Below the pieces are notes generated by a model. The model saw only the letters and a program-made list of their open reading frames with translations, was not told the origin of the DNA and made no database searches. Made by a program: the position numbers and the translations under genes. Source: Macrostomum lignano (lineage: Eukaryota). Taken from it: a stretch of 64,000 bases of DNA. The stretch covers positions 97,882 through 161,881 of the forward strand of contig NIVC01002389.1 in the NCBI GenBank assembly GCA_002269645.1. The letters are read 5' to 3'. Positions 17,083-33,679 of this stretch are shown here, one piece after another (positions within the stretch are counted from its first letter, which is position 1; each line of letters begins with the position of its first letter).

Positions 17083-17429
17083 AAAGTTTCGGATAAGCCA
17101 GAATAAGCTCTCAGGCACATTTGAGGGCCTGAGAGTTCTCTCTGTTATAAGTCCTTTGTTCATATTTGGTCAGCAGGTAGAATTCCACTGTCTCTAATTA
17201 ATTAATTGACCCATTCCGACACATTCCATAAATTTGTACCCTTTTTCATTTTGCCTTAATTGCTGATTTATTATTCTTGTTTGTGTGTGACGTTTTTATT
17301 AAATATAAGTTTTCGTTTGCATGACCCAACACCTGCTTTTGCAGTATTTTTCATTATATTATCATTGCCCTAAATTATATTAACATTAAACTGCCCGCTT
17401 AATATATAATAACTACCTGTAAATACCTG

Positions 17430-17558
17430 AGTAGTATGGGATAACAGAACTCTGCCGCAGGAATTTCCGTGGAAAAGCCATGGGCCCTAGTGAGTGAACA
17501 TACGGGCCCATGTAAATCCATTGAGCGACTCTGCCGCAGGGAAAGCCATGGAAATTCC
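17430..17558 (+). repeat. Left terminal inverted repeat of the Polinton
   Basis: Reverse complement of 33227-33355, with 7 mismatches in 129 bp by manual alignment. Confidence 0.95.
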
Positions 17559-17668
17559 ATGGGGGGCACATCGGGTGGGCATGGGGGCCCGGTGAGATAA
17601 CAAAGCGCATGCTGGTATATGTACTGAAGGAAACTCATTATTGCACCCACCCCACTCCGCCTAGAAAG

Positions 17669-17678
17669 TATATATAAG
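17669..17678 (+). promoter_or_regulatory. Candidate TATA box for the PC4-domain gene
   Basis: TATATATAAG about 80 nt upstream of ATG 17753, just inside the left TIR. Confidence 0.4.
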
Positions 17679-17752
17679 ATGGGCGATTTTTTGAGGTTGG
17701 CTTCATGACGAAAGGAATTTTTGTGCATCCTTCTTAAAGAAACATATCATTA

Positions 17753-18481
17753 ATGGATCTCTGTGACGGCTTCAAAGTTCAAGTGCAAGAGTACGAAGGT
17801 CATCGCTTTATTGCAATCCGACGTTTCTTCTCCTCTGAAAGCGGGCTCAGAGCGGGCATCCCTGGCTTTAACCTCAATGCATACCAATGGGAGAAGTTGA
17901 AGCAGCTGAAACGCCAGCTTGTGCACTCGGCAGTCAATCGGCACAGCGTCACAGTCAAGCTTGGCTTTGATAAACTCGTTGTGGTCAGCAGGGGTATCAT
18001 CTGGCTGAAGCGCCTGCCGGAAGACTGTACAGAGGATTATCTGCGGCGGAACTCAGTGGCGCTGACTCCCCGTCTATGGGGAGAACTCTGGAAGAAGGCC
18101 GAGTGGATCGACAACGAGCTGCGAGAGAAGTCGGCGGAGAGTGAGTATCAGCTGGAGGCCGAGGACATCAAGCATGAGGGCCAAGAAACTCTGCCGGTCA
18201 GCGAAGAAGAAGAAGAAGAAGAGAAGAGGCTGCGCATCGTCGAGTCGGACAATGCAACCAGCTCGCCTGTTCTGCCAGAGACTTCAGTCGGGCGCATACC
18301 CCAGCAAGACAGCGACCTGTCGCACGACCCACTGTGGTACCGGTTCCGTGCTGCTTCAGGGCTCGGCAACAGCGGCTGTCACAAACGAAAGCTTCCGTGG
18401 CCCCTGCGCAGGCAAAATGCAATCAAGTTGCCCAAAGTGATCAATGGTGGAGAGGATGGTGACGCAGACAAAAGTGCTTGA
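17753..18481 (+). CDS. Polinton protein with tandem PC4 (transcriptional coactivator p15/ssDNA-binding) domains and an acidic tail
   Basis: FKVQVQEYEGHRFIAIRRFF...GIPGFNLNAYQWEKLKQL resembles PC4 (VREFKGKVLIDIREYW...GRKGISLNPEQWSQLKE). A second degenerate copy ends NSVALTPRLWGEL. AATAAA cluster downstream at about 18607-18620. Confidence 0.75.
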   Translation: MDLCDGFKVQVQEYEGHRFIAIRRFFSSESGLRAGIPGFNLNAYQWEKLKQLKRQLVHSAVNRHSVTVKLGFDKLVVVSRGIIWLKRLPEDCTEDYLRRNSVALTPRLWGELWKKAEWIDNELREKSAESEYQLEAEDIKHEGQETLPVSEEEEEEEKRLRIVESDNATSSPVLPETSVGRIPQQDSDLSHDPLWYRFRAASGLGNSGCHKRKLPWPLRRQNAIKLPKVINGGEDGDADKSA

Positions 18482-18701
18482 TAACTTTTTAAGTGACTAT
18501 GCGTGGACATTGCTATGCCATCTGTATTGATGTCTAACAGTTCTATTTATCCAGCTTTTTCAGCTTATTCATTAATGTCCTATTAAATGAGCTCGTTTAA
18601 AATTAAAAATAAAATAAAATAAGCATCTCTCTCTATAGTTATGCTAGTTTACTGGTGAACTTAAGAATGCGAAATGAGTTTAATTTTTTCTCTAATTAAA
18701 A

Positions 18702-19769
18702 ATGGAAAAGATTTACTTTAACCCTGAGCAGCCAGCAAGCTTTTCTGGCTGCAATAAATTTATTAATGAAGTTCGCACGCAGGGTATCCGAGTGAGTGAA
18801 AAAGCTGCGAAAAACTGGCTTAACGATCAGACAGTCTACACATTACATAAGCCAGCAAGGAGGAATTATCCGAGGGCCCCAATCATAGTTCGAAGTATTG
18901 ATGACCAATGGGAGTTGGATCTGGTGGAGATGATTCCTTTTTCCAAGTATAATAACGGCTACAGGTATATTCTAACATGCATTGATGTGCTGTCCAAGTA
19001 CGGATGGGCGAGGGCATTAAAGAACAAGTCTTCTATTGAAGTGAAGTCGGCATTCGAGAGCATATTAAGAAGTTCAAAGCGGCAACCGCGCACTGTTCGC
19101 ACTGATCAGGGGAAAGAGTTTATCAACTCTACTTTTCGCCAATGCTGTATGGAAAGGGGAATCCTGGCATTCCCAACCAACAGTGAGCAGAAGGCGGCTG
19201 TCATTGAACGATGGAACCGAACTTTAAAGAGCAAAATGTGGCGCTACTTCACTCACAACAGCACTCTGCATTGGCTTGATGTGTTGCCTAAGCTAGTGAA
19301 GTCCTACAACAAAACATACCACAGAAGCATACGAATGGCCCCAACGAATGTCAGCCAGGAGAACGAGTCCGAGGTCTGGATGAGCCTATATGACGGGAAA
19401 GCGATTGAAACTGTGGAAAAGCTGGGAAAGCCAAAGTTCAGCGAAAACCAGTCTGTGCGGATTTCCAATGCACCCAGGCTTTTTAGAAAAGGGTACAAGG
19501 CCAACTGGAGCGAAGAAGTGTACACGGTGGTGTCCAGAGCTCCAAAGCATTATCCCTACATGTACAAGATAAAAGACATGAAAGGAGAAGAGATTCGTGG
19601 GCTTTTTCACGAGCATGAACTGCAGGCCGTTCCGGAGTCGCAGCGGCTGTATGTGATTGAAAAGATTTTGAAGACTGAGAAGCGGCAGGGAAAGATCCGA
19701 TATCTGGTCAAGTGGGCCGGCTACGACTCCACTGACTGGGTGGATGAGAAGGACTTAAGAAAAGTGTAA
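18702..19769 (+). CDS. Retroviral-like (rve) integrase with C-terminal chromodomain
   Basis: DDE triad WELDLVEM / RTDQGKEF / VIERWNRTLK; chromodomain YVIEKIL...YLVKWAGY...WV; intact 355 aa. Confidence 0.95.
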   Translation: MEKIYFNPEQPASFSGCNKFINEVRTQGIRVSEKAAKNWLNDQTVYTLHKPARRNYPRAPIIVRSIDDQWELDLVEMIPFSKYNNGYRYILTCIDVLSKYGWARALKNKSSIEVKSAFESILRSSKRQPRTVRTDQGKEFINSTFRQCCMERGILAFPTNSEQKAAVIERWNRTLKSKMWRYFTHNSTLHWLDVLPKLVKSYNKTYHRSIRMAPTNVSQENESEVWMSLYDGKAIETVEKLGKPKFSENQSVRISNAPRLFRKGYKANWSEEVYTVVSRAPKHYPYMYKIKDMKGEEIRGLFHEHELQAVPESQRLYVIEKILKTEKRQGKIRYLVKWAGYDSTDWVDEKDLRKV

Positions 19770-19799
19770 GATGCCGACATTGTGCAGCCATTCCCAATT

Positions 19800-20609
19800 A
19801 TGAGAAGCATCATCATTAACAGCGAAAATGCTGAAGGTACTCCTGCTGACTTTCATTTTCACCTGCCTTCACCTATTTACTTGGATCGAAATGTGGACTA
19901 TGAGGCAGGTCTGGCTGAAATCCATCTGCCTGCTGCATGGTTCAATGTTGACGAGCCTTACTGCTTCACTGTCTCAGATGGAAGAGAGCATGAGGCCTTG
20001 GTTCTTCAACCCGGACGCTTTGCTAGAGTGGAGGAGTTGGTGGAGCGCATGAATGAGCTGCTGGCCAACTCTGAGTCACTGTTCTTCGATGCAATGAGTG
20101 AGAGGGAGTCTGAAATGGAGGCTGATGAGTCTGGTTTAATGGGGCGGAGCAGCGCTAGAGATATTGGCATAAAGTTTGAGATCCAAGAATTGAGAACGGT
20201 AGTGCTCAACAACACGGCTCGAGCAGAATTATTCCTTCCATCAAGTAAAATTCTGCAGTGGCTGGGATTCGGAAATCAGTCCGTGAAAATTCCACCTGGG
20301 CGCCAAGTTTCCATGTACCACATTGGCTGCCCGCCCACCAATCTGATCAACGTGCATTGTAGCATTGTGGAGTCAACTAATTGCAACTGGAATTCCCTGC
20401 TGCGAACTGTGAACATGAATCCTGAAGCCGGATGGGGAAGCTACTGGAGCAAAGTGTTTAAGAAAACAGTTTTCTTCCCCATTCAGAAAACAAATTTTCT
20501 ACACAGCATTCGAGTTCAACTGCGAGACATCTTTGGCTTCTCACTGACTGCTCATAGCGGCAGCCCTGTTCTGCTCACAATTCTGATACGTGAGAGACCA
20601 ATGCAATGA
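19800..20609 (+). CDS. Minor capsid protein (penton, single jelly-roll)
   Basis: IIINS...ADFHFHLPSPIYL...YEAGLAEIHLPAAWFNV at the N-terminus and LHSIRVQLRDIFG...VLLTILIR at the C-terminus; lies between integrase and the core/MCP genes. First ATG at 19800. Confidence 0.8.
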   Translation: MRSIIINSENAEGTPADFHFHLPSPIYLDRNVDYEAGLAEIHLPAAWFNVDEPYCFTVSDGREHEALVLQPGRFARVEELVERMNELLANSESLFFDAMSERESEMEADESGLMGRSSARDIGIKFEIQELRTVVLNNTARAELFLPSSKILQWLGFGNQSVKIPPGRQVSMYHIGCPPTNLINVHCSIVESTNCNWNSLLRTVNMNPEAGWGSYWSKVFKKTVFFPIQKTNFLHSIRVQLRDIFGFSLTAHSGSPVLLTILIRERPMQ

Positions 20610-21020
20610 ACTATCAGCAGCTGATTCGGCAGTATTCAGGGACTCGGACGGGAAATGAAAAGTCCATGCTCTATGGCTGCGGGAGTTTTCCTGGAATAAT
20701 GACTTACCAGCCTCCTCCAGCACCTTCCATAACATCATCATCATCATTAGCATCAAAGCCTGTACAAACCAGCAGTAGCAGCAGAAGCAATAGTACGAGT
20801 AATAGAAACATAGGAAATCAAGGACAGGCTAAAAAGGTGAATAAAAAGCAGGTGCGCATGAAGAAGAAGAAAAAAGTGGCGAAGCACGCAAAACAAGCAA
20901 GGTCAGAACAAGCAAGCAACCTAAGAAAAGAACGACTAAAACACAGACCAAGAAAACAGGCAAAGAAAACAAAAAGTGGGCAAAGAAACTGTGAAGCGTG
21001 TTCTGGACTCACTCTCATAG
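20606..21020 (+). CDS. Basic putative core/DNA-condensing protein (adenovirus pVII-like); apparent frameshift near the C-terminus
   Basis: K/R-rich C-terminal half. LYGCG matches the adenain cleavage consensus (M/L/I)xGx/G. As read, the frame runs on into the MCP N-terminus; a +1 frame gives ...VGKETVKRVLDSLS* ending at TAG 21018-21020. Confidence 0.55.
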
Positions 21021-21022
21021 CA

Positions 21023-22305
21023 ATGGCTTACGGATTCAACCCGAGACTCGATTTGTTCAAGTCCCCCGTGCTGCAGACTGCTATTGAAAAATCACGTATG
21101 TTGATATTCACCCCGTGAACTCTATTTCTACTAACTCACCAATTGAATTCGACTGCCATCCATCGGCTGATGAGTACACTGATCTGCTGAGCTCATTCCT
21201 GTATATTCGCTGTCGCCTAGTCCGGCTTGGCGGGGCTTTGATGAGGGAGGAGGTTCGGAATGCCGATGGAGTTGTCACTGAGCGCAGAGACAGTGGGGTG
21301 CACCCAGAAAACTTTGTCCTATCTACGGCATTCTCAGATGTAATCGTGAGCATCAACCAGCGCATTGTCTCTGGCGGAGACCAGCTCTACCCCTACCATG
21401 CCTACCTAAAAGCTCTCATGAGCTCATCCGATGCTCAGCAGTTAAATTTCTACCCCGCCGGATTCCTGGAACCCGAAACTGCTGCTGAGGGGCATGCCGA
21501 GAGACACAGGGAGTCCCGCTGGGTGGAGTATGCGGGACCGCTGCTCAGCGACATCTTCCAGTGTCCTGTTCTGCTGCTGAACAATTTACACCTGCACATC
21601 AAGCTGATGCCCAGTGAAGCTGCATTTGCCATCCGAACCCCAGATGAGAACAACACAGCCTACCGAATTGAAATTTCCCATTGTATTCTGAACCTGCGCC
21701 GAGTCAAAGTGGCGCCTCACATCAGCCTAGCGCATGAGCAGGGACTTACCAATCAGAACGCACTTTACCCCATCGAGCGAACCGAAATGCAAAACTTCAT
21801 TCTACCCCAGGGAATTCAGTCAAAAAACATTGAAGGATTCACCCATGGCAAACTGCCGAAGTTCGTTATGCTGGTCTTCGTGAACCACCGAGCCTTCAAT
21901 GGCCATCACCATTCCAGCCCCTTCGAGTTCCAGAGCTTCAACCTCAGCCAGCTAGCACTAAAGAAAGGTGGTGAAGCCATGTGCCACGCTGCATTTGCAC
22001 CTGAGAATAATTCATTCGTGAGAGAGTACTTGCACTACCTGAAAAGCTGTCAGTCTGCCAGCCCTACCAACTCGGTTCCGTGGGTCCCCTACCAGTTGTT
22101 CTCCAACGGCAACACAGCTTTCGCATTCGATCTCACGCCTGAGGGAGCGGCCCTGTGGTACGGACAGAAGGAGGGAAATTTGCGGCTGGAGATTCGCTTC
22201 CGACAGGCCCTGGAGGAGCCTGTATCTCTGATTGTTATGTGCCTGTATGACTCACTGATTGAGGTCACGAAGCACAGGGAGATTCTGCTAGATTTTCCAT
22301 CCTAG
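21023..22305 (+). CDS. Major capsid protein (hexon/double jelly-roll, Polinton PY-like), ~427 aa; 1-nt frameshift at 21111-21114
   Basis: MAYGFNPRLDLFKSPVLQTAIEKS lies in the upstream frame. PIEFDC, YPYHAYLKALM, RRVKVAPH...ALYPIERTE, AFNG...SPFEF, AFAFDLTP and GNLRLEIRF lie in the 21115 frame. One extra C in the CCCC run restores a single ORF. Confidence 0.9.
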
Positions 22306-22328
22306 GAGTACGCTGGCGCAACGCTAAT

Positions 22329-22847
22329 ATGGATGCTTTTCAACTGCTTAAACTGGCTAAAAGCTTTTTGCCACAAAATAACTATTTAATTATTGTCTTG
22401 AATTCAATAAATAAAACATCTTATGCTTTAAACTTTATTCAGCGAGCAACTCTCAAAAGAAATTTATCTCGATGTAGGTTTATTTTCTTTCTGCTTCAGT
22501 ACGGCTCGTCCTTTGGTCACTGGGTGGTTTGTTATGCCAATAAGGAGAATTCCATAGAACTCTTTAACTCTCTGGGCTGGGACTCAAGCACTTTAGAGAT
22601 CATTCACAGAGCACTGAAATCCTTTTGGTATTCTCCATTCTACTTACGTAGCAATGTGAATCGAATTCAGAGCTGCAACTCTGCTAAATGCGGTTTGTTC
22701 TGTCTCTTGTTTGCCTATCAAAAGTTTCGTTTCAAGCGCTCGTTTGAGTGGGTTCTGCGGCACCTCCATGCAAATCAGCAGAGCCACTTGAATGAAAGAA
22801 TTCTGCAAAGGTTTGAGAGTTGCTTAAGAAAAAATAAATTTAATTAG
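22329..22847 (+). CDS. Adenain-like cysteine (maturation) protease
   Basis: GHWVVC...ELFNSLG...RIQSCNSAKCGLFC (catalytic His and Cys, oxyanion Gln). Confidence 0.88.
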   Translation: MDAFQLLKLAKSFLPQNNYLIIVLNSINKTSYALNFIQRATLKRNLSRCRFIFFLLQYGSSFGHWVVCYANKENSIELFNSLGWDSSTLEIIHRALKSFWYSPFYLRSNVNRIQSCNSAKCGLFCLLFAYQKFRFKRSFEWVLRHLHANQQSHLNERILQRFESCLRKNKFN

Positions 22848-22880
22848 ACTTTTAAAATCAAGGATTTAGCTCAACAGGCG

Positions 22881-23534
22881 ATGGAAACACGTGAGCGGAT
22901 AAACTGTTATGATGTGCGCCTGCGACAAGGAAGCTGCATGATTGTCAGCGGGCCTACAAATGCAGGAAAGACAACCTTCGTGAAACATCTGATACAATAC
23001 AAGGATGTCATGTTTGATGTGAAGCCTGGGAGAGTTCTGTGGTACTACGGAATTTCACAAGCAGCACACTCTGAGCTCAGCAGTCTCGGCGTGCACTTGC
23101 AGCAGGGATTTCCCAGCAGTATCGAGACCGCACTGAGACCCAATGACCTGGTTGTATTTGATGACCTGATTGAAGAAACTTCCAATTCTGCTGCAATGCG
23201 AAATGTTTTCACTGGAATTGCCCATCATTTGCCCTGCTTTCTGGTTATGCTGACCCAAAATGTATTTTTTAAAGGGAAGGAGTTGCGAACAATGAGTCTG
23301 AATGCGATGTACTTTGTGATCATGAAGAACCCCAGAGACCAGCTGCAGATTGCGGCGCTGGGCAGGCAGTGTTTTGCTGAGAAGCCCGGCTTTCTGCTGT
23401 CAGTGTTCAAGCACGTGACATCGCACGGCAGGGGAGCCTACCTGCTCCTGGATTTTCACCCTTCCACCCCTGATGAGCTGCGGGTCCGGGCTCGAATCCT
23501 GCCCAATCAGCGACCCCACCTGGTTTACACTTAA
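22881..23534 (+). CDS. A32/FtsK-HerA family DNA packaging ATPase
   Basis: Walker A GPTNAGKT, Walker B LVVFDDL, AHH and LTQN motifs, SLNAMYFVIMKNPRD. Confidence 0.95.
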   Translation: METRERINCYDVRLRQGSCMIVSGPTNAGKTTFVKHLIQYKDVMFDVKPGRVLWYYGISQAAHSELSSLGVHLQQGFPSSIETALRPNDLVVFDDLIEETSNSAAMRNVFTGIAHHLPCFLVMLTQNVFFKGKELRTMSLNAMYFVIMKNPRDQLQIAALGRQCFAEKPGFLLSVFKHVTSHGRGAYLLLDFHPSTPDELRVRARILPNQRPHLVYT

Positions 23535-23581
23535 GAATAACAGCCGAGATTTTGCCATTTGCTCTATATTCTGCAACACTA

Positions 23582-23899
23582 ATGATAATGGAAACATTCG
23601 ACTCACATGAAAGTTTGTTTGATGTTCTCGCCTCACCGAAATATTCCATCAGCTTTAAACGTCTGTTGATCAGAGCGGGTCCAAAAGCAGTACATGAATT
23701 TCTCATTGAGGCCTGCTATAACCTATTGCAAAACACTCTGTCGTTCTCACTCACTGAAAAGGCAGCGCTAGTGAAGCAAAAGCAAATAATCCGCAAAATT
23801 TCTACACATAGAAGAGCTGCGGATCTGCTAAATACGGGTTTTATCAAAATTCTCTACATTCTAATAAAGCTAGTGAAGAAAAAGAAACAAAATGAATAA
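23582..23899 (+). CDS. Conserved small Polinton protein of unknown function
   Basis: LIEACYNLLQNTL...KAALVKQKQIIRKI pattern and its position after the ATPase; first ATG at 23582. Confidence 0.65.
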   Translation: MIMETFDSHESLFDVLASPKYSISFKRLLIRAGPKAVHEFLIEACYNLLQNTLSFSLTEKAALVKQKQIIRKISTHRRAADLLNTGFIKILYILIKLVKKKKQNE

Positions 23900-24584
23900 G
23901 TTCTCAGAAATGGTTCTGATCCCCAAGTCAGAATACGACATGCTCACACAGAATTTGAAGCCAGTTGAGTCTGAACTCGACACTGCTGTGAGATATGCGC
24001 AGAGGAAATGCAATGATATTTTGCTTGCCGAGGATTGCCCAGACGATGTGAAAGCTGCCATGTACCATGATGCGATGAAGAGTTTGCTGGCCAAGCGCAA
24101 GCGGACTGGAAAGGATGATGCGGTACCTGCGAGTGATGCAAAGATGCTGAAAACTGATATTGCACCAAGCAGCTGGGGGGAAAAGATCACCCAATCCGTG
24201 CCGCAGAAGTTTAAAGCGAGAGCCCGCAGTCTATGGGCCATCCTATCTGGCAATCCTTCTCTGATTCGGGTGTCCGAAAATGGCGAGGCGCAAATTTGTG
24301 GGAAGACAATACCCTCCTCAAACATCCTGGATTTGTTTCACAGTGCCGTGAGGGATTCGAAATGTGCCAGCGAGCCGGTGGGCTGGAGTGAGTTTGTCTC
24401 ATTGCTCCAAGATAAAAAGCTTAACATCCCAGCTTCGGCCATAGGAAAGTCAGTTAGGCAGCTAATTTCTAAACCTGCTGTTTCTCCAGAGGCCGCCCCT
24501 GCTCATCATACAGTTAAAGGATTCGGGAGTGGGAGAGCTTGGCTACAGCTGAACAGGAAAAAACTATTTAAGAAGGGGAACTGA
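23892..24584 (+). CDS. Conserved Polinton protein of unknown function (possible virion protein)
   Basis: MVLIP N-terminal motif, ENGE...GKTIPSSNILDLF, and C-terminal VKGFG (possible protease site) followed by W; overlaps the upstream ORF by 8 nt. Confidence 0.65.
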   Translation: MNKFSEMVLIPKSEYDMLTQNLKPVESELDTAVRYAQRKCNDILLAEDCPDDVKAAMYHDAMKSLLAKRKRTGKDDAVPASDAKMLKTDIAPSSWGEKITQSVPQKFKARARSLWAILSGNPSLIRVSENGEAQICGKTIPSSNILDLFHSAVRDSKCASEPVGWSEFVSLLQDKKLNIPASAIGKSVRQLISKPAVSPEAAPAHHTVKGFGSGRAWLQLNRKKLFKKGN

Positions 24585-24624
24585 GTCGGCTTCCCGATAT
24601 CAGGCATCTTGAAACCATCCGATC

Positions 24625-25470
24625 ATGAACTATATTGACTTCCAAGGCTTCCCACGCGAGAGATCGAGCAGAGATTTCGTTGTGAAGGAGCTAGCCATTG
24701 CCCAAGTCCGGGCAGGCAGTTACCATATCACTCATCACGTGTACGCCTCTCCGTTCTCATGGGAGCGAATCTCACCTGAGATGCAGGTGCATTACAGAAA
24801 GCTCTCAAAGAATTTGCATCATTTCAAGTGGACAGATGGATCCCGATCGTACATGCATTTGGCAAATGACATTCTAAACATTGCTTACGGCCCCACCTGG
24901 ACAAGCGGGGTGAAAAAGTCCATCTTTCTGACTGAGCTGCTTGGCAGACAGGTGTACAACCTAGAGGATCTGGGATCACCTTTGATTCAAGCATCTGATA
25001 CTGGTTGTGCAGTGAAAAATGTATTGCTCTACTACAACTGGCTGAAGCCAAAGTTCTGTATCAACTTAAGAAGCGAGGTGTGCCCGCACCACTCAAAGGC
25101 TCTCAAAGACAGCACCACTGACAGAAAGGACTCTCTAAATGAGTACACCTGCGACAGCCCTGCGAGTGACCAATCTGGTTGGCGGCGTGGATCTGAGGCT
25201 GGCTGGAGGCAGGGGTGCCCAGTTGCCTCTGCGGGAACTGGCTCTCAGCATGGCTCATGTCATCTATCGCCCCGTCTGGCCCCGAGTGCTCATCAAGAGG
25301 ATGCGGAATCCCAGAGTGACTCTGTTGCTCTATCCGACTGGACAACTGAGTATCTGTGGCGCCCGGAGCTACTCGGCCTCAGTCAAGGCTGCCCGTCGCT
25401 TCGTGGCTATGCTGCATCGCAGAGTTCCGCCTCAACTGCTGCCTCGTCAATCCGTTTGTGTCCGAATTAA
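24625..25470 (+). CDS. Polinton accessory protein, probable RNase H/DEDD-exonuclease-like fold in the first ~140 aa
   Basis: YIDFQGF...FVVKELAI...HHFKWTDG...KSIFL...VYNLEDLG...CAVKNV..YYNWL. The last ~110 codons overlap the TBP-like ORF. Confidence 0.5.
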   Translation: MNYIDFQGFPRERSSRDFVVKELAIAQVRAGSYHITHHVYASPFSWERISPEMQVHYRKLSKNLHHFKWTDGSRSYMHLANDILNIAYGPTWTSGVKKSIFLTELLGRQVYNLEDLGSPLIQASDTGCAVKNVLLYYNWLKPKFCINLRSEVCPHHSKALKDSTTDRKDSLNEYTCDSPASDQSGWRRGSEAGWRQGCPVASAGTGSQHGSCHLSPRLAPSAHQEDAESQSDSVALSDWTTEYLWRPELLGLSQGCPSLRGYAASQSSASTAASSIRLCPN

Positions 25471-25705
25471 GACTATTACTGCTTATGGAAAAATAGACTT
25501 GCCCAAGGCTCTATCACTAAGAAACCTCTGTGAAGTGCTACCGAATGCGAAATATGAACCTGAAAGTTTTACTGCTTTAGTTTGTCAGCTTCAATACTGC
25601 AAGTGTACGCTTTTTCACAATGGCTCATTTGTGCTCAGCGGAGCAAAGTCTAAGCATATGCTACAATCAGACCGTTCCCTATTAGCTTGCTTGCTTTCAA
25701 ACTGA
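25139..25705 (+). CDS. TATA-binding-protein (TBP)-like protein, complete two-repeat core, 188 aa
   Basis: Repeat 1: LRVTNLVGGVDL...RMRNPRVTLLLYPTGQLSICGARS...AARRF (TBP: LQNIVSTVNL...[24 protein letters not shown]...AARKY). Repeat 2: YEPESFTALV...TLFHNGSFVLSGAKS (TBP: YEPELFPGLI...LIFVSGKVVLTGAK). AATAAA signals follow the stop. Confidence 0.85.
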   Translation: MSTPATALRVTNLVGGVDLRLAGGRGAQLPLRELALSMAHVIYRPVWPRVLIKRMRNPRVTLLLYPTGQLSICGARSYSASVKAARRFVAMLHRRVPPQLLPRQSVCVRIKTITAYGKIDLPKALSLRNLCEVLPNAKYEPESFTALVCQLQYCKCTLFHNGSFVLSGAKSKHMLQSDRSLLACLLSN

Positions 25706-26265
25706 AATAAATAAAAAGAAAGAATAAATCGCGGCTTGTTTAATTAAAATATTCAAATTAATTCTCTCTCATGCACTAGCTTTTTTGTCTTCATTTTTAA
25801 TTGCAATGAAAAACCAGTGGTGAACATCTTGTAGAGATAAACAAATAGCAAGCTAAAAGCAAATACGAGCAAGCAGATAAACCACTACAAAAATAGGAAA
25901 AAATAGTCCAAAAGCAGATGGAATATATTAAAACTTATAAAGCAATATCAGGATTCAAAAAACCAACCACAAAGTACAGGTAAAATTAGAAAAAAATAAA
26001 ACTCTCACATGCCATCACCGCAAACACCACCACCACCACTAACGAAGCATTGGTTTCATTATCATCATCGCGCAATTGTAAGTAAATATTGTGAAGCAAA
26101 AAATTGTTGCTAGCCTCAGCAGATGATCAAAGTTTTTATTGCATGCGGAAAAAATCCTATTTAGATTAGCGGTTAACCTTTATTCAATGTCAAAGAAAGA
26201 AACTTTGAAATCGCAAAGAAATTATTGTTTTTGTTTAGCAAGCTTGTTGTACTCATTATTCAATT

Positions 26266-26353
26266 TCAAAGTAGTCGGCGCCGTTTTGATGATTTCTGCT
26301 GCTGTTGCTGCTGCTGCTGTTGTTGTTGTTGTTGTTGTTGTTGCTGCTGTTGC

Positions 26354-26422
<69 letters not shown>

Positions 26423-29400
26423 AGCAGCCGAATGTGACCAAATGGGAGACTATAGTTAGGGCTCAGCCAAGCGCGCTTGTCTTCCCAAATGCTTAAGGCA
26501 CACTTCCGCTGCTGCAAAGTGTACAGTCGGTGATGGATGCTGGCAATACGATGAACAACGACAGAATGGCTGCAGAGCTCATTGAACACCCTTAGGTAGT
26601 CACTGTGAGCCAGCTCTTTCTTAACAATGCATCCTTGAACTCCTTTGGCCTTCTTCTTTTCCGCGGCTTGGCTACTCGCCTTGAATGAGTAAAGCTTCGG
26701 CCTTAGGAGCAGCCACTCCTCAAAGCGAGCACCGGCTGCTTCATCCTTAATGCAGCCAAGTCGCGCTTTTAAATCATTCGAGAATAGCGCGTGCTCTTGA
26801 GGATAGTTTGAAGTGTCGAGCAGCTGCTTCGACTTCAACAGCGGTAGAACTTTAGACTGAACGCTCATGTTGCTGATTGAGAGAAAGAAAGAATCGGTAT
26901 CACCACCGCATAGCTTGATGACACCTCCATCGTTCTCTATCCAGGGCTTCAGTTTGTCGTAAAACAGCTCGTACATAATCATTTTCGAAAAGTCTAGGAC
27001 GCATTGCCCGATAAAAATAGGCCGATCGAGCTTTAATTTTGTCTTTTGCAGTTCCAAAACGCTTAGTGAATCAGTAATTATGATAAAATTGGTAATTGTC
27101 GGCTTGGCAAGCAGTACCTTTACCTTTTCCACGTTGGTGCAGACTCGAATATCACGCCGCTTTCGCACATTCTCCATAGTTTTGCCGAATAGCGCGTTAT
27201 TCTTTAACTTGTAGAAATCCTTTTCGAAGTTGGTTTTCGCTGCAGCCCGCTTCTGGCTATTTTTCTCGACGTAGGCAGCAAAGAGAGGCTCTTGGTGAAA
27301 CTCAATCATGCGATTGATGCGTCTAACCCGCATTCCATGGTTCAGGTAGAACGCCAAAATAGAGGAATGAACCACATAGGAAGGCTTATCGTGACAAGTG
27401 AGCATCAGCTTCTCTGTCGGATGATAGGTGGAGTTCTCCGTACCGACCTTTTCCCACAGCTGCTGCATGTATTCAGGAAATTCCCTGAAATTCGGGGCAG
27501 CCTTTTCCGGTGCAAATGGTAGGTCTTCGGTGGTTTCGTGAATCTCTGGGGGATACTCAAGGTCAACATCAAAGAGGTAGGCGAGTGGATCGGTTAGCTT
27601 GAGTCCTCGAATGCGATCTTCAGTCCACAAAAGCAGCTCATCATCGTCCAGCCAACGGAATCCTCCGACTGGTAAGTTCATAGTGAGCGCCTGTCCATAC
27701 AGGTTGTTTGCATCCACAGCAAGAAGCTCGGTGAGGCCAGCATGAATAGTAGGAGTGCCACCATCAACATCCTCATTGCTGTCAACACCAGTGCTGGCGC
27801 CCGCTGCTGAGGTAGCCTGCACTTTGTGGATGTTAACAAACGACATGCCGCCGCGAATGCCGCGCTCAAACAGCGAATACATCTGCGCATCTGTTAGCAG
27901 TTCAATCCCTGACTTGATGGATTTCAATGCCGAAGCGAATGATAGGCCTGGTGTCGAAATAAAATGGACTGGATCAAGGCCATCCTCTTGCATGCTGATC
28001 TTGCGAAAATTTTCAAAAATATCAGCCAACTGCCTGATGTCGAGCTCGAGGTAGCACAGCATGTACTCTTTTAGATTTGAAACCTGAAATTCTCGCCAGG
28101 CGCGTTGAGCATGCTCATAGTCAGAGTTGGTGCAGTGGCTCTTAGTCAGAGCATTGTAGAAGCTCTCTTGGCTGGGAAGCACGGCATCCTTCAGCACGTC
28201 TGAATTTTTAAGATAGTCATACGGGAAAACTCCCTTGCTGAAAAGCACTTCGGATGATAGCAGTGGGAATCTGCTGCTGCGTAGGCGACTAGTGATACGA
28301 CATTCAGCCTCTGGTAAATTTTTGATGAGCTGTGAGAGGCTGGCATTAAGAAATTGATTCGAATCAATGAACTGAATAGTAAAATTTAAAGGCTTGATCT
28401 TGCCCTCACTCTCATACTCGCCGATTTTAAATTCGATTTTCATCGACAGAAACTGCTCTGGATTCAGAGGGATGACGGAGATTTTCCAACCCTCCATCAG
28501 ACCCAAAGCGGATGACATCATGAGATGGAGATCGTACCCCTTGAAATTGTGGAACACGACGGGAAGGAAAGACCTCTTTAGTCTGGCCTTCATATTACAA
28601 TCAGCACACGCAGCTCCCCGAAATTCTCCGCTGAGGTGGTCGTGATCCCAATGTTTATTGGACCCTTCCGTGAATTCGCTTCTACAATAGCAGCAAGCTG
28701 TGGCTTCTCTGAACTGTCGCCCTGCCATCTCTGTTCTTATCGCTGCTTGTCGACTGAACTCCGTGTTCCAGCCGTAAACTTCACGAGCGAGCTTCTCCAG
28801 CGATTGCAGGAAATCGGAAATGCACTTATTAGGATCGTCGCTGACAAAAGTGCTCACTTTATCATCCGCTCCTCTGGGCGCTAGACCAGTCATCCCTTCT
28901 CTGTGCAGCACGATGTAGCCAGCAGCAACAGCAATGTGCTCAGTTAACTTCTTCGTTGCTATACCAGCAATCGAATCTTCTTGGCATGGAGCATTCAATG
29001 CTTCGAAGTCGGCGTAAACAACAAATGGCGGACTAATTGTTTTTTCCCATGATGAGAATCGGAGAATATTATTCCTTTCATCTGGCAACTCTTCCTTGAC
29101 GTTGATCACTCCAGGTTGACAAGGAGCTCGGCTGTGTTCTTCAAAGGCTGCATCACTATGAAAGGGCAGCAAGCAGCGCTCACACCACTTCCGCCGATGC
29201 AGAGCTGCCTTGCTATTAAGAAGCCTGTTGATGCTTGAAACAGCACACCAATGACCCGAGGCCTCGTCTTCTGATGGTGGAATAAATAAGAGTAGAACAA
29301 CTTCTCGATCTTTAATTGTAGCTGCAGTAGGCAAGCGGAGGACTTGAGCGCTCTCTTTCTCCCAGATGAAAACCGTGAAGCAAAGTCTCGGGTTCAGTCT

Positions 29401-30578
29401 CTCAACAATGGAAAGGTCGGTGACATTGATTGGCAAGTCAATTCCACTCATGTTAAGTTCATCCAGCCAGTCAGTGTAGGAAGACTCGCGTTGCGCTGAT
29501 TTCTTTATTTTGTTGTCTTCCTTGTGCAGAAAAGCAAGGCATGCGTAAAGAAAGCAATTTACACCATTGCTTGGAGGACAAATAACCGCCTTCTTCCGAA
29601 GAAGTGGAGTCGGTAGAATAAATTCCGCAGCATGCCCCGTGTAGTAGGAAACTCGTTCGACGAGAGCTGAGTAAAGTTCAAAAAAATTGATTTTTTCAAT
29701 TATCCAGCCACTACCGTTGGTGTTGTAGACATCGACTTTGCGCTCCAGCTCTGTAAACTGCTGTCTCCACCAATCATCAAACTCCTGTATATCTACCACC
29801 AATCCGAGTTGTGTGCTCATCCATTTATCCTCCCCCTTGACAGCTTCTGACGCCTGCACTCTGACCATGCGCAAATTCAGTTTGATCTGAGCTTTAACAG
29901 AGCAATTATCCGAAGAGTCGAAGCGAATTTCAAGACACTGCTGCACTGCGATTTTGCAGAAATCGAGAAACTCGAATGTTTCAGTGGCAGCTCCAGGTGT
30001 AAATCGATGAACTTGAAGAACATCTTCGTGAGCGCTGGTTTTTAACGCCAGGGTGAATGAAGGTCCTACAATTGAAGAAGGGAAGATAGTATTAAAAATA
30101 TTTATGGAAAGTGGAAATGATGAGAAATGTCTCTGGGAGTTATGGAAGTCGAATATTTTATTGCCCTTTTTTACACTTACGAGTATACTATTTATCCTAC
30201 TACCTTATATCTAGATTTAATATTTTTTTATTAATCAATACGAGCTACGTATAAGTGTAAAAAAAGAATTTGAAGAGTTATTATTGAAGAAATAGATGGA
30301 GTTCTGCTTTCGCATTTTTGTCAATTCATCTAATGAGGAATAAAAATGTCTCATTATTGTGAGTTCTCCGGCTTAATCCTGTTGGGAACCATTTGGGAAT
30401 TGTTGTGTAGGCGAGAAAAATATAAATAATTCCGTTGCTAAGAGACAGGAATGCAACAAACAGAAATGCATGAGTTCATAAAACCAGCAATGGAATGAAA
30501 AAACTTACCACTCGGTCCAAATTCGTGGCTGACAGCTGGGTCCACCGGCTCGTCCTCTTGACTCGATGAGGTGGCCAT
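26266..30578 (-). CDS. Protein-primed family-B DNA polymerase (pPolB); 2 exons (30578-30509, 30065-26266), ~1289 aa
   Basis: Exonuclease motifs YADFE, FHNFKGYD and ELDIRQL; polymerase motifs DANNLYG, KLKNNALFGK, GDTDS, RPKLY and KAKGV; endonuclease-VII-like DHDHLSGEFRGAACADCN. The frame stays open upstream of 29946 through a TTGTAG acceptor, and a phase-1 ATG exon ending G|GTAAGT joins it in frame. Confidence 0.93.
26296..26421. repeat. CAG/CAA trinucleotide tract encoding C-terminal polyQ of pPolB
   Basis: About 42 codons, almost all Gln, immediately after the conserved LPFGH end motif. Confidence 0.95.
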
Positions 30579-31269
30579 TACAGAGAATTAATATTAGAAA
30601 TAGAGCGACATTTAGTGAAGAACTCAATGCTGCTGAAATTCCAGTGTAAAAGTGTTGTTTGATAAATTTAACCCAAGTGCAATTCTGTCAGAGATGTAGT
30701 GGAGTGATAAATTTCCAGCATTCAGAGCTCTATGGAGCAGAAATTGAATCTAACCAAAGTCATGCTTGACAAACCAAATTCATGTCATTCTAAACATTGG
30801 GTATCATAGATCATCAATCCCATATTATACTCATAGAGTTGAGTAGATGCTGTGAACCTAACGGTAATTCTATAAGCGAGTGAACCTATAACTTCTTCGA
30901 AGATATTCACATGATTGAAAAAAAAAAACAAGTAATGAATTCAACAAAGTCCAAGAAAGTGCAAAAGCTTTCATTAAAAGCAACCATCAATCCATTATAT
31001 TTCTGGTAAAGCATTTCGCAATGCAAAAAATCATGCTCGTTAGTCACCCTACTAATTAAAGCTGCTTATTAAAGCTTTATTATAAGAATAAGTTTGAACA
31101 GTAAGCCTAAATTATTTTCTTTTTCACTTTGTTTATGAGAAACCTGTATGAGCACGATGAGGTGCAACGTAATTAGTTAATATTTATGCAGGGTAGAATG
31201 CATTGGTTTTACCCTAAAAATCTACAAATCTCGTTTCCCCTACTTTTAAATACTTTGAACTGGGACACT

Positions 31270-32418
31270 TTAAGAGCTACTTAAGCGAATGCGAGTTCCT
31301 CCCCCAAGGTCAATAAAATACTCGCCCTCGACTCTGCTCGGTAGTACCAGCTGAATGCAGACTGACGGTGGCATCGGTGGCATGGCTTCTACGACTGGGA
31401 TGTCACCGGTTTGGATTTCTGGTGCAGCCGGTGGAGTAGGAGGTTCGAATTCTCGCAGGAGATCGGATAGGCTTGCTTCTGCCATCATTCTGGCTTGCTC
31501 CATATTTTTTCCTGCGACTGGAACAGGCCTGTAGGGTGGCATCTGTTGCTGCTCAGCTTCTTCATTTGCCAGCTCAACAGGCTCCAAATCGACATCCTCG
31601 AAGAAGGCAGTATCCAACTCCGAAGGAGCTGCAAAACCAGTGGAATCGTCAGCTGGGAGGCCGGCATCAGCAGTTGGAAGGCCGGCACTGTCAGCTGGGA
31701 GGCCGGCATCAGTAGTTGGAAGGCCGGCACCGTCAGCTGGGAGGCCAGCATCAGTAGTTGGAAGGCCGGCACCGTCAGCTGGGAGGCCGGCATCAGTAGT
31801 TGGAAGGCCGGCACCGTCAGCTGGGAGGCCGGCATCAGTAGTTGGAAGGCCGGCACCGTCAGCTGGGAGGCCGGCATCAGTAATTGGAAGGCCGGCACCG
31901 TCAGCTGGGAGGCCGGCATCAGTAGTTGGAAGGCCGGCACCGTCAGCTGGGAGGCCGGCATCAGCAGCTGGCGCAGCGGTTGAACCAAAAAAATCTGATT
32001 GCTGCTCCACAGCGGCAAGTGCAGCGGCAAGCAGATCAAAGTTTGCATCGGTAGCGTGCTGAAAATCTTCATCAGGCTGCTGAAAGACGCCCTGAATTGT
32101 CTGGCTGAGTGCGCTGACCGGTGCTCGACTGCGCTCGATAATGTTGAGCTGCTCTTGACGCTGGGCAGCCTCCAAGGCAGCAAAGCGGGCTCGTTTTAAA
32201 TCTCCAGGTGAGCTCCAGTTAATAATAATGTGGTTTTTGTGAGCTCGAACTTGCTGGCGCACATTAAAGAGCTCACGCGTCTGGCACTCGTGGCAAAGCA
32301 GCCAGCGACTGACATTGCAGCTGCTTTTCATTTTGTGACGTTTTAAGCCACCGAGCTCACATGAGTTGCAGGAAATGCATACCTCGTACACATATGAAGG
32401 GCAGCGCGATTTATTCAT
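31270..32418 (-). CDS. Polinton accessory protein: Cys-rich N-terminus with LxCxE, 14-aa repeat, acidic/Pro-rich C-terminus
   Basis: 382-aa ORF starting with ATG. CISC/CHEC pairs, LLCHE at aa 40-44, (ADGAGLPTTDAGLP)n, and LSDLL near the C-terminus. Confidence 0.7.
   Translation of the reverse strand: MNKSRCPSYVYEVCISCNSCELGGLKRHKMKSSCNVSRWLLCHECQTRELFNVRQQVRAHKNHIIINWSSPGDLKRARFAALEAAQRQEQLNIIERSRAPVSALSQTIQGVFQQPDEDFQHATDANFDLLAAALAAVEQQSDFFGSTAAPAADAGLPADGAGLPTTDAGLPADGAGLPITDAGLPADGAGLPTTDAGLPADGAGLPTTDAGLPADGAGLPTTDAGLPADGAGLPTTDAGLPADSAGLPTADAGLPADDSTGFAAPSELDTAFFEDVDLEPVELANEEAEQQQMPPYRPVPVAGKNMEQARMMAEASLSDLLREFEPPTPPAAPEIQTGDIPVVEAMPPMPPSVCIQLVLPSRVEGEYFIDLGGGTRIRLSSS
31648..31966. 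repeat. In-frame 42-bp (2x21-bp) coding tandem repeat
   Basis: GTCAGCTGGGAGGCCGGCATCAGTAGTTGGAAGGCCGGCACC, about 7.5 copies. Confidence 0.95.
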
Positions 32419-32559
32419 TCCAAATTTTTTAATGTTTGAATAGAAAAATCAAATTGAAGTTAAATTCAAATTAGAAGTAGAAACTTATGTCCCGTATTCA
32501 AGTATACGGTGTCTTATATACCTCGCTTATTCGAATCTGTGTTAATAAAAACATAGCCG

Positions 32560-32605
32560 CTATGTTTACAGCTTAGCTATGTTTACAGCTTAGCTATGTT
32601 TACAG
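32560..32605. promoter_or_regulatory. Triple forkhead-type motif repeat (17-bp period)
   Basis: CTATGTTTACAG at 32560, 32577 and 32594, 140-190 nt upstream of the ATG at 32418. Confidence 0.45.
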
Positions 32606-33226
32606 TCAGTAACCCAGCCGTCTCAGAAACCGGTTTTTTAAAATAATTTTATTAGAAAACCCAGATACAGAGCCTCTATTGAAAGCATACATGTACAAAA
32701 GTTCCTTTGCACTTGCCGCCAACTGGAACTCCCGACCAGACTGGGGAGCAATAAAACTGATAATTATTGAGCGTCCAATTCCATTTAGCAACACACCCAC
32801 CACCCCAAGAAAGGGGGAGATGCTTGGCTATTATAATCTTATTAAAGCAGCATCTTGTTATTGAAACTTTTGCCTAATTAATAGGCAAAAGTTTCAATTA
32901 ATTCCAAAATTCCAAAATCCTTAAATTCCAAAATCAAGTGATTTTTCAACAGTTGGTAGCTCAAATTTTAGACATGAATTGCAAATTGATTTTATTGTAA
33001 TCATTGAAATAAAGACACGCCCCTCCTCCTTTTACGATACCCGATGGAATATTAAATGTCATTCAGAAGCAAAGCATTGCCTGGTTTTATGAACCGAACC
33101 GCCTGTGTCCGTCGTAGCAGAACACGCATTTGCCAATACTCATTCATTGCGGTTAACGGAATTCCCGCGGAGCCCCAACCCATTCGCAAATACTTGCACC
33201 AATGTACTCTCACTAGGAGGTCTCAC

Positions 33227-33355
33227 GGAATTTCCATGGCCTGCCCTGCGGCAGAGTCGCTCAATGGATTTACATAGGCCCGTATGTTCACTCACTAGGG
33301 CCCATGGCTTTTCCACGGAGGTTCCTGCGGCGGAGTTCTGTTGTCCCATACTACT
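33227..33355 (-). repeat. Right terminal inverted repeat of the Polinton
   Basis: Ends ...CCCATACTACT and is followed by the TSD TACCTG. Confidence 0.95.
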
Positions 33356-33679
33356 TACCTGTAACGATACGCATCGCGCGAACCGGTTTTGCGGTGAAAC
33401 TAAAATATTTTGTACTTTAATTTCGACTTTTTTCCTTGTGGCTTCTCATCAACAATGCGAGATGATTCACGAGCTACGAGTTTCTATGTCCCCTTTGTTG
33501 CCTTCCTATTGTGCTTACGTATATTGATTTTAGTACTGTCAGCTCCATCAATTGTATTCTCGAGGTCAAAATTACAGGAACTGCTGCGATGTATTTAGGT
33601 ATTCATTATTAAGATATTAAGATGCTTTCGGTTGATGAAATTTCTTGTACTAGCTTGCCGCGGCTAATGGTGAGGGATC

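Follow-up and report, generated by a model that had tools for sequence, protein, structure and literature searches.

How an integrated Polinton turns on its virion genes without an RNA polymerase of its own is a question bound up with whether particles form, and it is raised by Macrostomum lignano contig NIVC01002389.1 (GCA_002269645.1), where a 15.9-kb Polinton flanked by TIRs and a TSD lies inside the 64,000-nt stretch of DNA analyzed here (the window). Both genes that characterize Polintons/Mavericks (adintoviruses), pPolB and an rve integrase, are present, as are the TIRs and the 6-bp TSD, and contigs from 3 listed runs pass from 17429 straight into the right flank of the element, showing that an empty site exists. 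In agreement with the first-pass annotation, no RNA polymerase family was detected by Pfam in the 13 ORFs scanned, and no TFIIB was found by Pfam in these 13 ORFs or when profiles of three unknown ORFs were compared with PDB sequences. Pfam matches in the element were obtained for the integrase, the C5 protease and pPolB; within the virion module the protease scored above the cut-off, the ATPase gave weak P-loop matches only, and the capsid genes, which had no match, were named by position and are putative. We take 19800..20609 to encode the minor and 21023..22305 the major capsid protein, and the ORF at 24625..25470 to be DEDD-exonuclease-like by its motifs. The element comprises the following features.

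17424..17429 (left copy) and 33356-33361 (right copy), no strand: 6-bp TSD, read directly from the sequence
17430..17561, plus strand: left TIR, 132 nt, 94% complementary to 33224-33355
17753..18481, plus strand: tandem PC4/PUR-like ssDNA-binding protein with acidic tail (profile and model)
18702..19769, plus strand: integrase, rve with chromodomain (Pfam)
19800..20609, plus strand: putative minor capsid protein (position; no Pfam match)
20606..21118, plus strand: small basic ORF, its 3' part entering the major-capsid frame in the window copy
21023..22305, plus strand: putative major capsid protein, its 5' part out of frame in the window copy (position)
22329..22847, plus strand: C5 (adenain-like) protease (Pfam), without a box of its own
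22881..23534, plus strand: packaging ATPase (P-loop; weak Pox_A32 match)
23582..24584, plus strand: two conserved ORFs of 105 and 230 aa, function not assigned (no TFIIB match by sequence)
24625..25470, plus strand: DEDD-exonuclease-like ORF (motifs; no database match)
25139..25705, plus strand: TBP-like protein, core only, 188 aa (Pfam, model, alignment)
26266..29868, minus strand: listed part of the element
31270..32418, minus strand: Zn-binding/acidic-repeat ORF at the 'Oncoid' position (alignment; LxCxE not conserved)
33224..33355, minus strand: right TIR, pairing with the left TIR

Contigs of four runs that are presumably RNA extend over genes, TIR and flank without distinction, and resolve neither starts nor strand.

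The TBP core proposed by the first-pass annotation was recovered by Pfam as two repeats of PF00352 (E 1.3e-22). A model of the protein (pLDDT 79) matched human TBP with Z 18.4 and an rmsd of 2.4 across 171 residues and displayed the two-repeat saddle fold of the family, with residues 4-188 making up the TBP fold and the N-terminal domain that binds the Pol II CTD being absent. The gene is intact and shows purifying selection (dN 0.19-0.42, dS at least 1.65, in the half that is not overlapped by another ORF), the tail of the exonuclease-like ORF running over TBP codons 1-110 in a different frame. Six diverged Polinton lineages of the M. lignano genome carry a TBP-like gene, and scored TBP matches in the genome numbered at least 150 for group A and 76 for group B. 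Identity to host TBP and TRF2 is about 25-30%, and in a quick tree, whose outside sequences were 40 of 80 length-filtered matches, the TBP-like proteins did not cluster with the host TBP/TRF2 genes, groups A and B lying together on one side of a branch with support 76, a tentative grouping.

Residues of the DNA face were compared among group-A clades that are only 35% identical to one another, using yeast residue numbers. N69, F190, F207, E186 and E188 are invariant in 16/16 rows, and further positions are replaced yet uniform (F99 by P, F116 by Y, V122 by S/T, T124 by C, Q158 by K, N159 by T, V161 by T/S). The set by which a canonical TBP reads TATA (four intercalating Phe, N69/N159, V122 and P191) is not conserved: group A keeps two Phe and N69, and F99, F116, V122, N159 and P191 are replaced in all 16 rows. 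Group B has the same P99, Y116, T122, S159 and T161 as group A. The acidic stirrup that contacts TFIIB is retained, as E186 and E188 in 16/16 group-A rows and as D/E in group B. A proline at one of the four intercalating Phe positions could also mean weakened DNA binding.

Upstream of the genes, a sense-strand TAAGAA box was found 42-149 nt 5' of 8 of the 10 internal genes (background 0.19, P 5e-5; the box was spotted first by eye, and the search windows and some start codons were fixed afterwards). Canonical TATA boxes precede 12 of 15 terminal/early genes versus 2 of 57 internal genes. The boxes of the window's element are listed here.

17671..17678, plus strand: canonical TATA box (TATATAAG) of the PC4-like gene, presumably an early-type promoter
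18660..18667, plus strand: TAAGAA box of the integrase, intergenic, conserved amid otherwise dissimilar flanks
19754..19761, plus strand: TAAGAA box of the putative minor capsid gene, within the integrase 3' end
20457..20464, plus strand: TAAGAA box of the small basic ORF
20920..20927, plus strand: TAAGAA box of the major capsid gene
22823..22830, plus strand: TAAGAA box of the ATPase, within the protease 3' end
23530..23537, plus strand: TAAGAA box of the 105-aa ORF
24567..24574, plus strand: TAAGAA box of the exonuclease-like ORF
25065..25072, plus strand: TAAGAA box of the TBP-like gene (a canonical TATA box stands at that place in lineage A2)
32513..32520, minus strand: canonical TATA box of the Zn/acidic ORF, presumably an early-type promoter

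The group-A genes without a box are the protease and the 230-aa ORF. At the minor-capsid box the codons are identical in 7/7 rows reaching it, although synonymous sites are saturated. Distances from box to gene range over 21-149 nt, never less than about 20 nt from the start codon, more scatter than is expected of a strict -30 element, unless 5' leaders vary. As a candidate promoter element, the TAAGAA box is new here. The genes, the fold, the selection on the TBP-like gene and the boxes, with their distribution and conservation, are shown by the analysis.

The box was also followed across lineages. In lineage A2 it precedes 6/10 genes (P 6e-4). In group B, the second TBP lineage, TATAAGCA takes the place of the TAAGAA box; TATAAG[CT]A occurs at 14/27 group-B genes, the integrase and ATPase mostly lacking it. 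The best de novo hexamer was TATAAG (19/47 windows versus 4.3 expected, P 2e-9 before 4096-fold correction). Capsid families without a TBP match had a box at 1/7 and 0/7 genes. In control family W, two of the start positions used do not fall on an ATG, and the sequence of control family X stops short of its ends. Two lineage-B3a copies have boxes and no TBP in the left end retrieved, and a sister copy, 99.9% identical to them over 1.9 kb, does have TBP. A candidate for a capsid-only satellite proved to be a full family, and this idea was dropped.

The two TBP groups differ at P191, which is lost in 16/16 group-A rows and retained in 5/5 group-B sequences, and their boxes differ at positions 1-2, where TA occurs at 4/24 sites in group A versus 14/20 in group B. 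This proline of TBP favors T at box position 1, according to PMC12529657. By sequence comparison, T at position 1 disappears in step with the loss of the T-favoring proline, and as homologous sites are not independent, this link amounts to two lineages' worth of evidence.

Taken together, the explanation that we hold to be fairly probable is a two-tier programme in which the TBP-like protein would act as a late-promoter factor of altered specificity, working like the herpesvirus vTBP. In the first tier, the canonical TATA boxes of the terminal genes, encoding the PC4-like SSB and the Zn/acidic regulator, would be read by host TBP/TFIID, as would the canonical TATA that serves the TBP gene, or the block it belongs to, in lineages A2 and B. 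In the second tier, the TBP-like protein would bind a variant box whose position 6 is G (NNTAAGAA for group A, TATAAGCA for group B), located at the virion-module genes and in group A also at the integrase, and the retained acidic stirrup would bring in host TFIIB and Pol II. Positive feedback would arise in the window's lineage, where the TBP gene itself has the box. Binding, timing and TFIIB recruitment are steps that we infer from these patterns, which suggest that an altered TBP and a matching box could form a minimal built-in early-to-late switch on host RNA polymerase.

The proline at an intercalating position and the retained TFIIB contacts would also fit a different arrangement, in which the box works as a weak variant of TATA for host TBP and the viral protein serves as a decoy for TFIIB, Mot1/NC2 or TAFs, or as a repressor of host promoters. 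Group-B boxes do start with TATA, and going by the title of entry 1qn5, wild-type TBP has been crystallized with a TATA variant that carries G(-26), which means that TATAAG might be read weakly by host TBP. However, the DNA-face substitutions are invariant rather than decaying, group-A boxes (C-T-T-A-A-G) differ from TATA at three positions, and across families the box goes with the presence of TBP, which makes this arrangement unlikely.

The first-pass annotation had proposed another role for the TBP-like protein, as one part of a joint initiation complex with the tandem PC4 protein and an E1A-like LxCxE activator. Its double PC4 domain is confirmed by sequence for repeat 1 (PF02229, E 8e-5, 22.5 bits, under the cut-off of 25; E 2.6e-7 for its profile against PC4 structures), repeat 2 being seen only in the predicted fold, and BLASTP of the two halves against each other revealed no similarity. 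The model (pLDDT 87.6) consists of two sheet-plus-helix units, both with the PC4 ssDNA-binding fold, and aligned with PUR-alpha across 117 residues (Z 10.2, rmsd 3.9) and, within residues 1-63, with human PC4 (Z 6.4). It shares its fold with PC4/Sub1, with PUR-alpha and with the PC4-like SSB of phage T5, repeat 1 resembling PC4 and the single-chain tandem PUR-alpha, but it has two repeats per chain, and it travels with pPolB rather than TBP. To judge from PDB names cellular PC4 is a Pol II coactivator, and the survey of co-occurrence did find all three genes together in lineage A1 (TBP and PC4 in 15/15 elements retrieved, which were chosen for having both, and the Zn ORF in 11/15) and PC4 adjoining TBP in A2. 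They are uncoupled elsewhere: the Zn ORF was found in 0/7 A2 elements retrieved, the 10 retrieved lineage-B elements with TBP gave 0 PC4 matches, and the TIR-bounded family Y has PC4 and pPolB without TBP. With PC4 in TBP-less PolB elements and missing from TBP lineage B, the tandem PC4 protein is probably a replication SSB, and its main task would be to bind ssDNA during protein-primed replication, a role that we infer. In its place group B has an ORF that weakly resembles DUF2738/DUF5871/Pox_I3 clusters (scores 0.84-0.89), which have an SSB role; sequence searches with this SSB-like ORF and with the exonuclease-like, 105-aa and 230-aa ORFs yielded no informative match. Phage PC4-like proteins are likewise described as putative SSBs in PMC8545432.

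The third member is the Zn/acidic ORF. Its Zn-binding residues (eight Cys/His invariant in 6/6 rows) and acidic repeat tail are as predicted, and LxxLL was seen by eye in 4/8 rows, but LxCxE occurs in 3/8 rows and its Cys simply opens a CxxC; the idea of an Rb-binding motif was rejected. Pfam detected no family for the N-terminal domain of the window's ORF. Paired CxxC 5' of PolB, part of the 'Oncoid' definition in PMC8502044, are present, and a conserved LxCxE followed by a CK2 site is not, the window having by eye no (S/T)xx(D/E) directly after. A joint complex of the three proteins is quite unlikely, and the redirection of host Pol II that the first-pass annotation envisaged is upheld through the TBP-like gene and its box, not as a three-part system.

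Two further readings dispense with a TBP-box pair. The baculovirus late motif is (A/G/T)TAAG. The box core matches it, ATG distances vary, and PLVs are reported to use helper promoters, so that TAAG could be a baculovirus/nudivirus-type late initiator for a helper virus RNA polymerase, the TBP-like gene doing something else; but beyond TAAG the box is lineage-specific (AA versus CA, and positions 1-2) and tracks the TBP lineage, it keeps its minimum distance from the start codon, and it is missing from capsid families without a TBP match, and we consider this very unlikely. It is highly improbable that the box is not a promoter but a signal for RNA processing, be it 3' end formation or the trans-splicing of a polycistronic transcript. 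The genes are co-oriented and tightly packed, and several boxes do fall within the 3' end of the gene before them, but the TBP box is mid-ORF, the integrase box is intergenic and 3' of AATAAA signals, and the block's last gene has AATAAA at its end and no box.

The late-promoter factor favored here has a counterpart in the herpesvirus vTBP (KSHV ORF24), which, according to PMC7498053 and PMC12529657, is likewise a TBP-fold protein of a nuclear DNA virus that encodes no RNA polymerase, with a more polar DNA face and a variant box at structural genes (TATTWAA in beta/gammaherpesvirus late promoters), early genes having ordinary TATA; in the Polinton this division is a matter of sequence. ORF24, which has several domains, binds to the Pol II CTD, is without the TFIIB acidic residues and depends on five partners, whereas the Polinton protein, as known from sequence, is a bare 188-aa core that keeps these residues and is paired with TAAGAA/TATAAGCA. 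With cellular TBP and TRF2/TBPL1 (PF00352) it shares the fold (Z about 18), two repeats, N69, F190, F207 and the acidic stirrup, but it has no N-terminal extension and carries the DNA-face substitutions. Viral TBP folds of Nucleocytoviricota were the next structural matches in BFVD, but at identities of at most 20%. Most Nucleocytoviricota with TBP homologues encode their own RNA polymerase. Adintoviruses/Polintons/Mavericks (Starrett et al. 2021, PMC8502044) are the same type of element, and two of the three parts that the first-pass annotation grouped are already annotated in adintoviruses: 'Oncoid' genes with CxxC and LxCxE stand 5' of PolB, and the lancelet adintovirus 'MOSUB' is a PC4-like protein by its BFVD label. 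In the text available, 'TBP' is a gene label in the Fig. 5 legend for MELD viruses and related elements, accompanied there by no promoter box, residue analysis or transcription model. One supplement of PMC8502044 gave no match, and a literature search whose coverage left out most subscription journals, Repbase annotations and bioRxiv supplements returned no paper on a Polinton TBP-promoter system. Relatives outside this genome were not confirmed in viral contigs (TBP, ATPase and integrase queries) or metagenome contigs, so no Polinton of another animal serves as control; among 1.84 billion representatives, 7 fell below E 1e-40 (4 labelled Macrostomum lignano, 3 without organism label), and the PC4 profile gave 1 relative under length limits that excluded full-length forms.

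A bolder version, which we advance only tentatively, is that an old Polinton TBP clade and its boxes co-diversified into orthogonal TBP-promoter pairs, each a single 190-residue protein redirecting host TFIIB-Pol II, with G6 read by the remodelled N-terminal lobe and T1 relaxed where the proline was lost; the assignment of TBP lobes to box bases is our assumption. The TBP and its predicted cognate box make the switch question directly testable with one small protein and one 8-bp site, and the structural rules of TATA recognition can be probed as well, with two naturally occurring TBP-box pairs whose residues co-vary. The switch would be a simpler, apparently independent answer to a task for which herpesviruses use six proteins. 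If the pairs are orthogonal, they would constitute the smallest viral late-transcription system known and would supply a natural library of TBPs with altered specificity, and co-resident Polinton families would possibly keep separate late programmes.

The element is a Polinton bounded by 132-nt terminal inverted repeats (TIRs) and a 6-bp target-site duplication. Its plus strand encodes, in this order, a PC4-like protein, integrase, putative minor capsid protein, a basic ORF, putative major capsid protein, protease, ATPase, two unknown ORFs, an exonuclease-like ORF and a TBP-like protein, and its minus strand encodes pPolB and a Zn/acidic ORF (window coordinates):

17430-33355, Polinton
17753-18481, plus strand, PC4-like protein
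25139-25705, plus strand, TBP-like protein (188 aa)
30510-30577, minus strand, probable first exon of pPolB (short; GTAAG donor)
31270-32418, minus strand, Zn/acidic ORF

Contigs from public runs join both flanks without the element, and because an empty site thus exists the insertion is probably recent. The major capsid gene of this copy is out of frame in its 5' part, and no canonical TATA was seen by eye directly upstream of the short pPolB exon. The closest named database proteins to those of the element are labelled Macrostomum lignano. Left of the insertion, at 13478-15874, lie host exons that resemble a MAGUK/p55 gene.

The first-pass annotation had combined the TBP-like, PC4-like and Zn/acidic ORFs into one Pol II transcription toolkit, and their co-occurrence was surveyed in elements fetched from the same genome. 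In the window's own TBP lineage A1 (TBPs 69-100% identical), TBP and PC4 were present in 15/15 elements, which had been selected for carrying both, and the Zn/acidic ORF in 11/15, two of the four misses stopping at a contig end. In lineage A2 (TBP 35% identical), TBP and PC4 occurred in six of seven fetched elements and the Zn/acidic ORF was found in none of the seven. Group B (which includes lineages B3a, B3b and B4), whose major capsid is 34-36% identical to that of A2, carries another lineage of TBP, located upstream of pPolB in 10 of the elements fetched; two further elements had no TBP at their left end, two more were fetched at insufficient length, and no match to the PC4 profile was found in the fetched elements. 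Family Y consists of TIR-bounded elements of about 9-10 kb (three seen with both TIRs) that carry pPolB and tandem PC4 and gave no TBP, capsid or integrase match. The capsid-bearing families X and W gave no match to a broad TBP profile, which detected held-out group-B TBPs with E values of 1e-16 or lower; coverage of W extended over about 13.5 kb, and that of X stopped short of the element ends. PC4 thus goes with the polymerase and TBP with some of the capsid families, and the three-part toolkit is left unsupported by the TBP without PC4 of group B, the PC4 without TBP of family Y and the result for the Zn/acidic ORF in A2.

Further features of these copies were observed. Family Y (L117:397-9368; L110-L111; L102-L103) has dozens of copies, with a PC4 promoter similar to that of the window. 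The mosaic copy L016 (G000:C393) matches the window at 94-100% identity over the stretch from PC4 through the exonuclease-like ORF and at 53% in pPolB, with a switch point within the TBP gene that separates the two repeats. Several A2 copies (L043-L044, L040, L046) have lost most of pPolB and kept TBP, PC4 and virion genes, i.e., they are non-autonomous derivatives; the A2 contig C114 retains a long pPolB. In group B, an ORF adjoining TBP and absent from group A by profile weakly resembles nucleocytovirus DUF2738/DUF5871/Pox_I3 clusters (0.84-0.89; a lead only). In both B4 copies (L088:2169-3590, minus strand; L087) the TBP-like frame is continuous with that of a deoxynucleoside kinase (Pfam dNK, E 7e-24), and in B3b the two are separate neighbours. 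Group-B TBP frames (L077:1445; L088; L116:2315; L118) have no upstream ATG and start at an apparent splice acceptor, which makes splicing to an exon further upstream probable.

Given this distribution of PC4 and TBP, the PC4-like protein is most simply read as the SSB of protein-primed replication, which may have an additional side role in transcription. PC4-like proteins of phages are described as putative SSBs (PMC8545432). The proposed tandem PC4 domain held for repeat 1, detectable by sequence; repeat 2 was visible only in the predicted model, whose best match is PUR-alpha. The best viral match is a MOSUB-labelled protein of a lancelet adintovirus. In the Zn/acidic ORF the Cys/His cluster is invariant and the acidic repeat tail variable; a 36-bp tandem repeat at 31640-31970 varies in unit and copy number among subfamilies while the frame remains open. 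The Cys of its LxCxE doubles as the first one of a CxxC; the LxCxE is retained in 3/8 rows, and Rb binding through it is unsupported. An early acidic regulator is plausible, and Starrett et al. place 'Oncoid' genes at a matching position (PMC8502044).

The remaining member of the proposed trio proved to be a true two-repeat TBP core. It was compared with the host TBP from the same genome over 16 group-A rows, in yeast numbering. N69, V71, E186, E188, F190 and F207 are kept in 16/16 rows, and F99>P, F116>Y, V122>S/T, T124>C, Q158>K, N159>T, V161>T/S and P191>S/T/N are uniform changes in 16/16. Group B shares P99, Y116, T122, S159 and T161 with group A and keeps P191. dN/dS is well below 1, and such uniform change of the predicted DNA face across these distances is more in keeping with a new specificity than with decay. 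A quick tree did not place the TBP-like proteins with host TBP or TRF2, and its support of 76 neither establishes nor rejects a single origin of groups A and B (hhalign 94.8%).

A variant box accompanies these TBPs. TAAGAA lies upstream of 8/10 plus-strand internal genes of the window whose upstream regions were read, at the corresponding sites of the other A1 copies inspected and upstream of 6/10 A2 genes; in group B, TATAAG[CT]A precedes 14/27 genes. The top de novo hexamers were TATAAG with one element per lineage (19/47 search windows vs 4.3 expected, P 2e-9) and TAAGAA with three deep lineages (14/27 vs 3.5, P 8e-7); both survive 4096-fold correction, with a search window chosen after the motif had been seen. 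Control families without a TBP match had the box in 1/7 (X) and 0/7 (W; two W starts misplaced) genes. Canonical TATA was found at 2/57 internal genes vs 12/15 terminal or early-block genes, the A2 TBP gene being counted in both sets. Inside coding DNA the box is conserved even at synonymous positions: for the integrase, with dS of 2 or more and a single codon in 1/26 invariant Leu/Arg columns, the box codons are the same in 7/7 rows reaching the site, A2 included, and in the protease in 9/9 such A1 rows.

In an alignment with TATAAAAG, position 6 is G in both boxes and lies in the half presumably read by the N-terminal TBP lobe, where V122 and F116 are changed. TA occupies positions 1-2 in 14/20 group-B vs 4/24 group-A sites. 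The proline P191 is said to favour T at position 1 (PMC12529657), and TA would be a neat fit to its presence in B and loss in A, a comparison of two lineages. In place of the box, genes of families W and X (L112, L119, L097) have an A-run directly before the ATG, and these families may use another transcription route, e.g., a helper virus; copies of the W capsid gene number at least 98, with 97-100% identity.

In A1 and A2 alike, the frame of the exonuclease-like ORF remains open over the first 107-129 codons of TBP, with an unchanged phase (window 25139-25470). Synonymous shuffles gave P 0.006-0.024 for each of 10 sequences, and between distant subfamilies TBP dS is 0.36-0.69 in the overlap, below the 1.1-1.45 of the upstream gene's free 5' part, which points to probable conserved dual coding of a Ser/Gly/Arg-rich tail. 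The putative first exonuclease motif (24625-24650) has Gln in A1 vs Glu in A2, so the A1 enzyme may be inactive.

In its proposed working, predicted from sequence, the TBP-like/box pair is like the herpesvirus vTBP/TATT system (PMC7498053, PMC12529657). However, it is not a member of that system, because the TBP-like protein, unlike vTBP, has no Pol II-binding domain and retains the TFIIB residues. A figure legend that covers MELD viruses and related elements carries a TBP label (PMC8502044), and the literature searched, which took in few subscription journals, yielded no account of a Polinton TBP paired with a cognate box.

Against a mechanism based on this pair stand the binding of host TBP to a G(-26) variant in crystals, the spread of box distances (21-149 nt), the lack of a box at several virion genes, and a box core that resembles the baculovirus late motif. 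No element-encoded TFIIB was found by sequence. Canonical TATA precedes the TBP gene of A2, and the group-B TBP lies inside a block opening with canonical TATA in at least one lineage. The A1 TBP gene is itself preceded by TAAGAA, and its earliest transcription would therefore have to come from leaky starts or from starts further upstream. The two-part hypothesis of a TBP-like factor and a variant box is nevertheless well supported by the sequence comparisons, from which we infer each step of the mechanism: host TFIID would fire the terminal TATA promoters first, and the TBP-like protein would then read the variant box of the virion genes and, with its acidic stirrup kept, hand these genes over to host TFIIB and Pol II.
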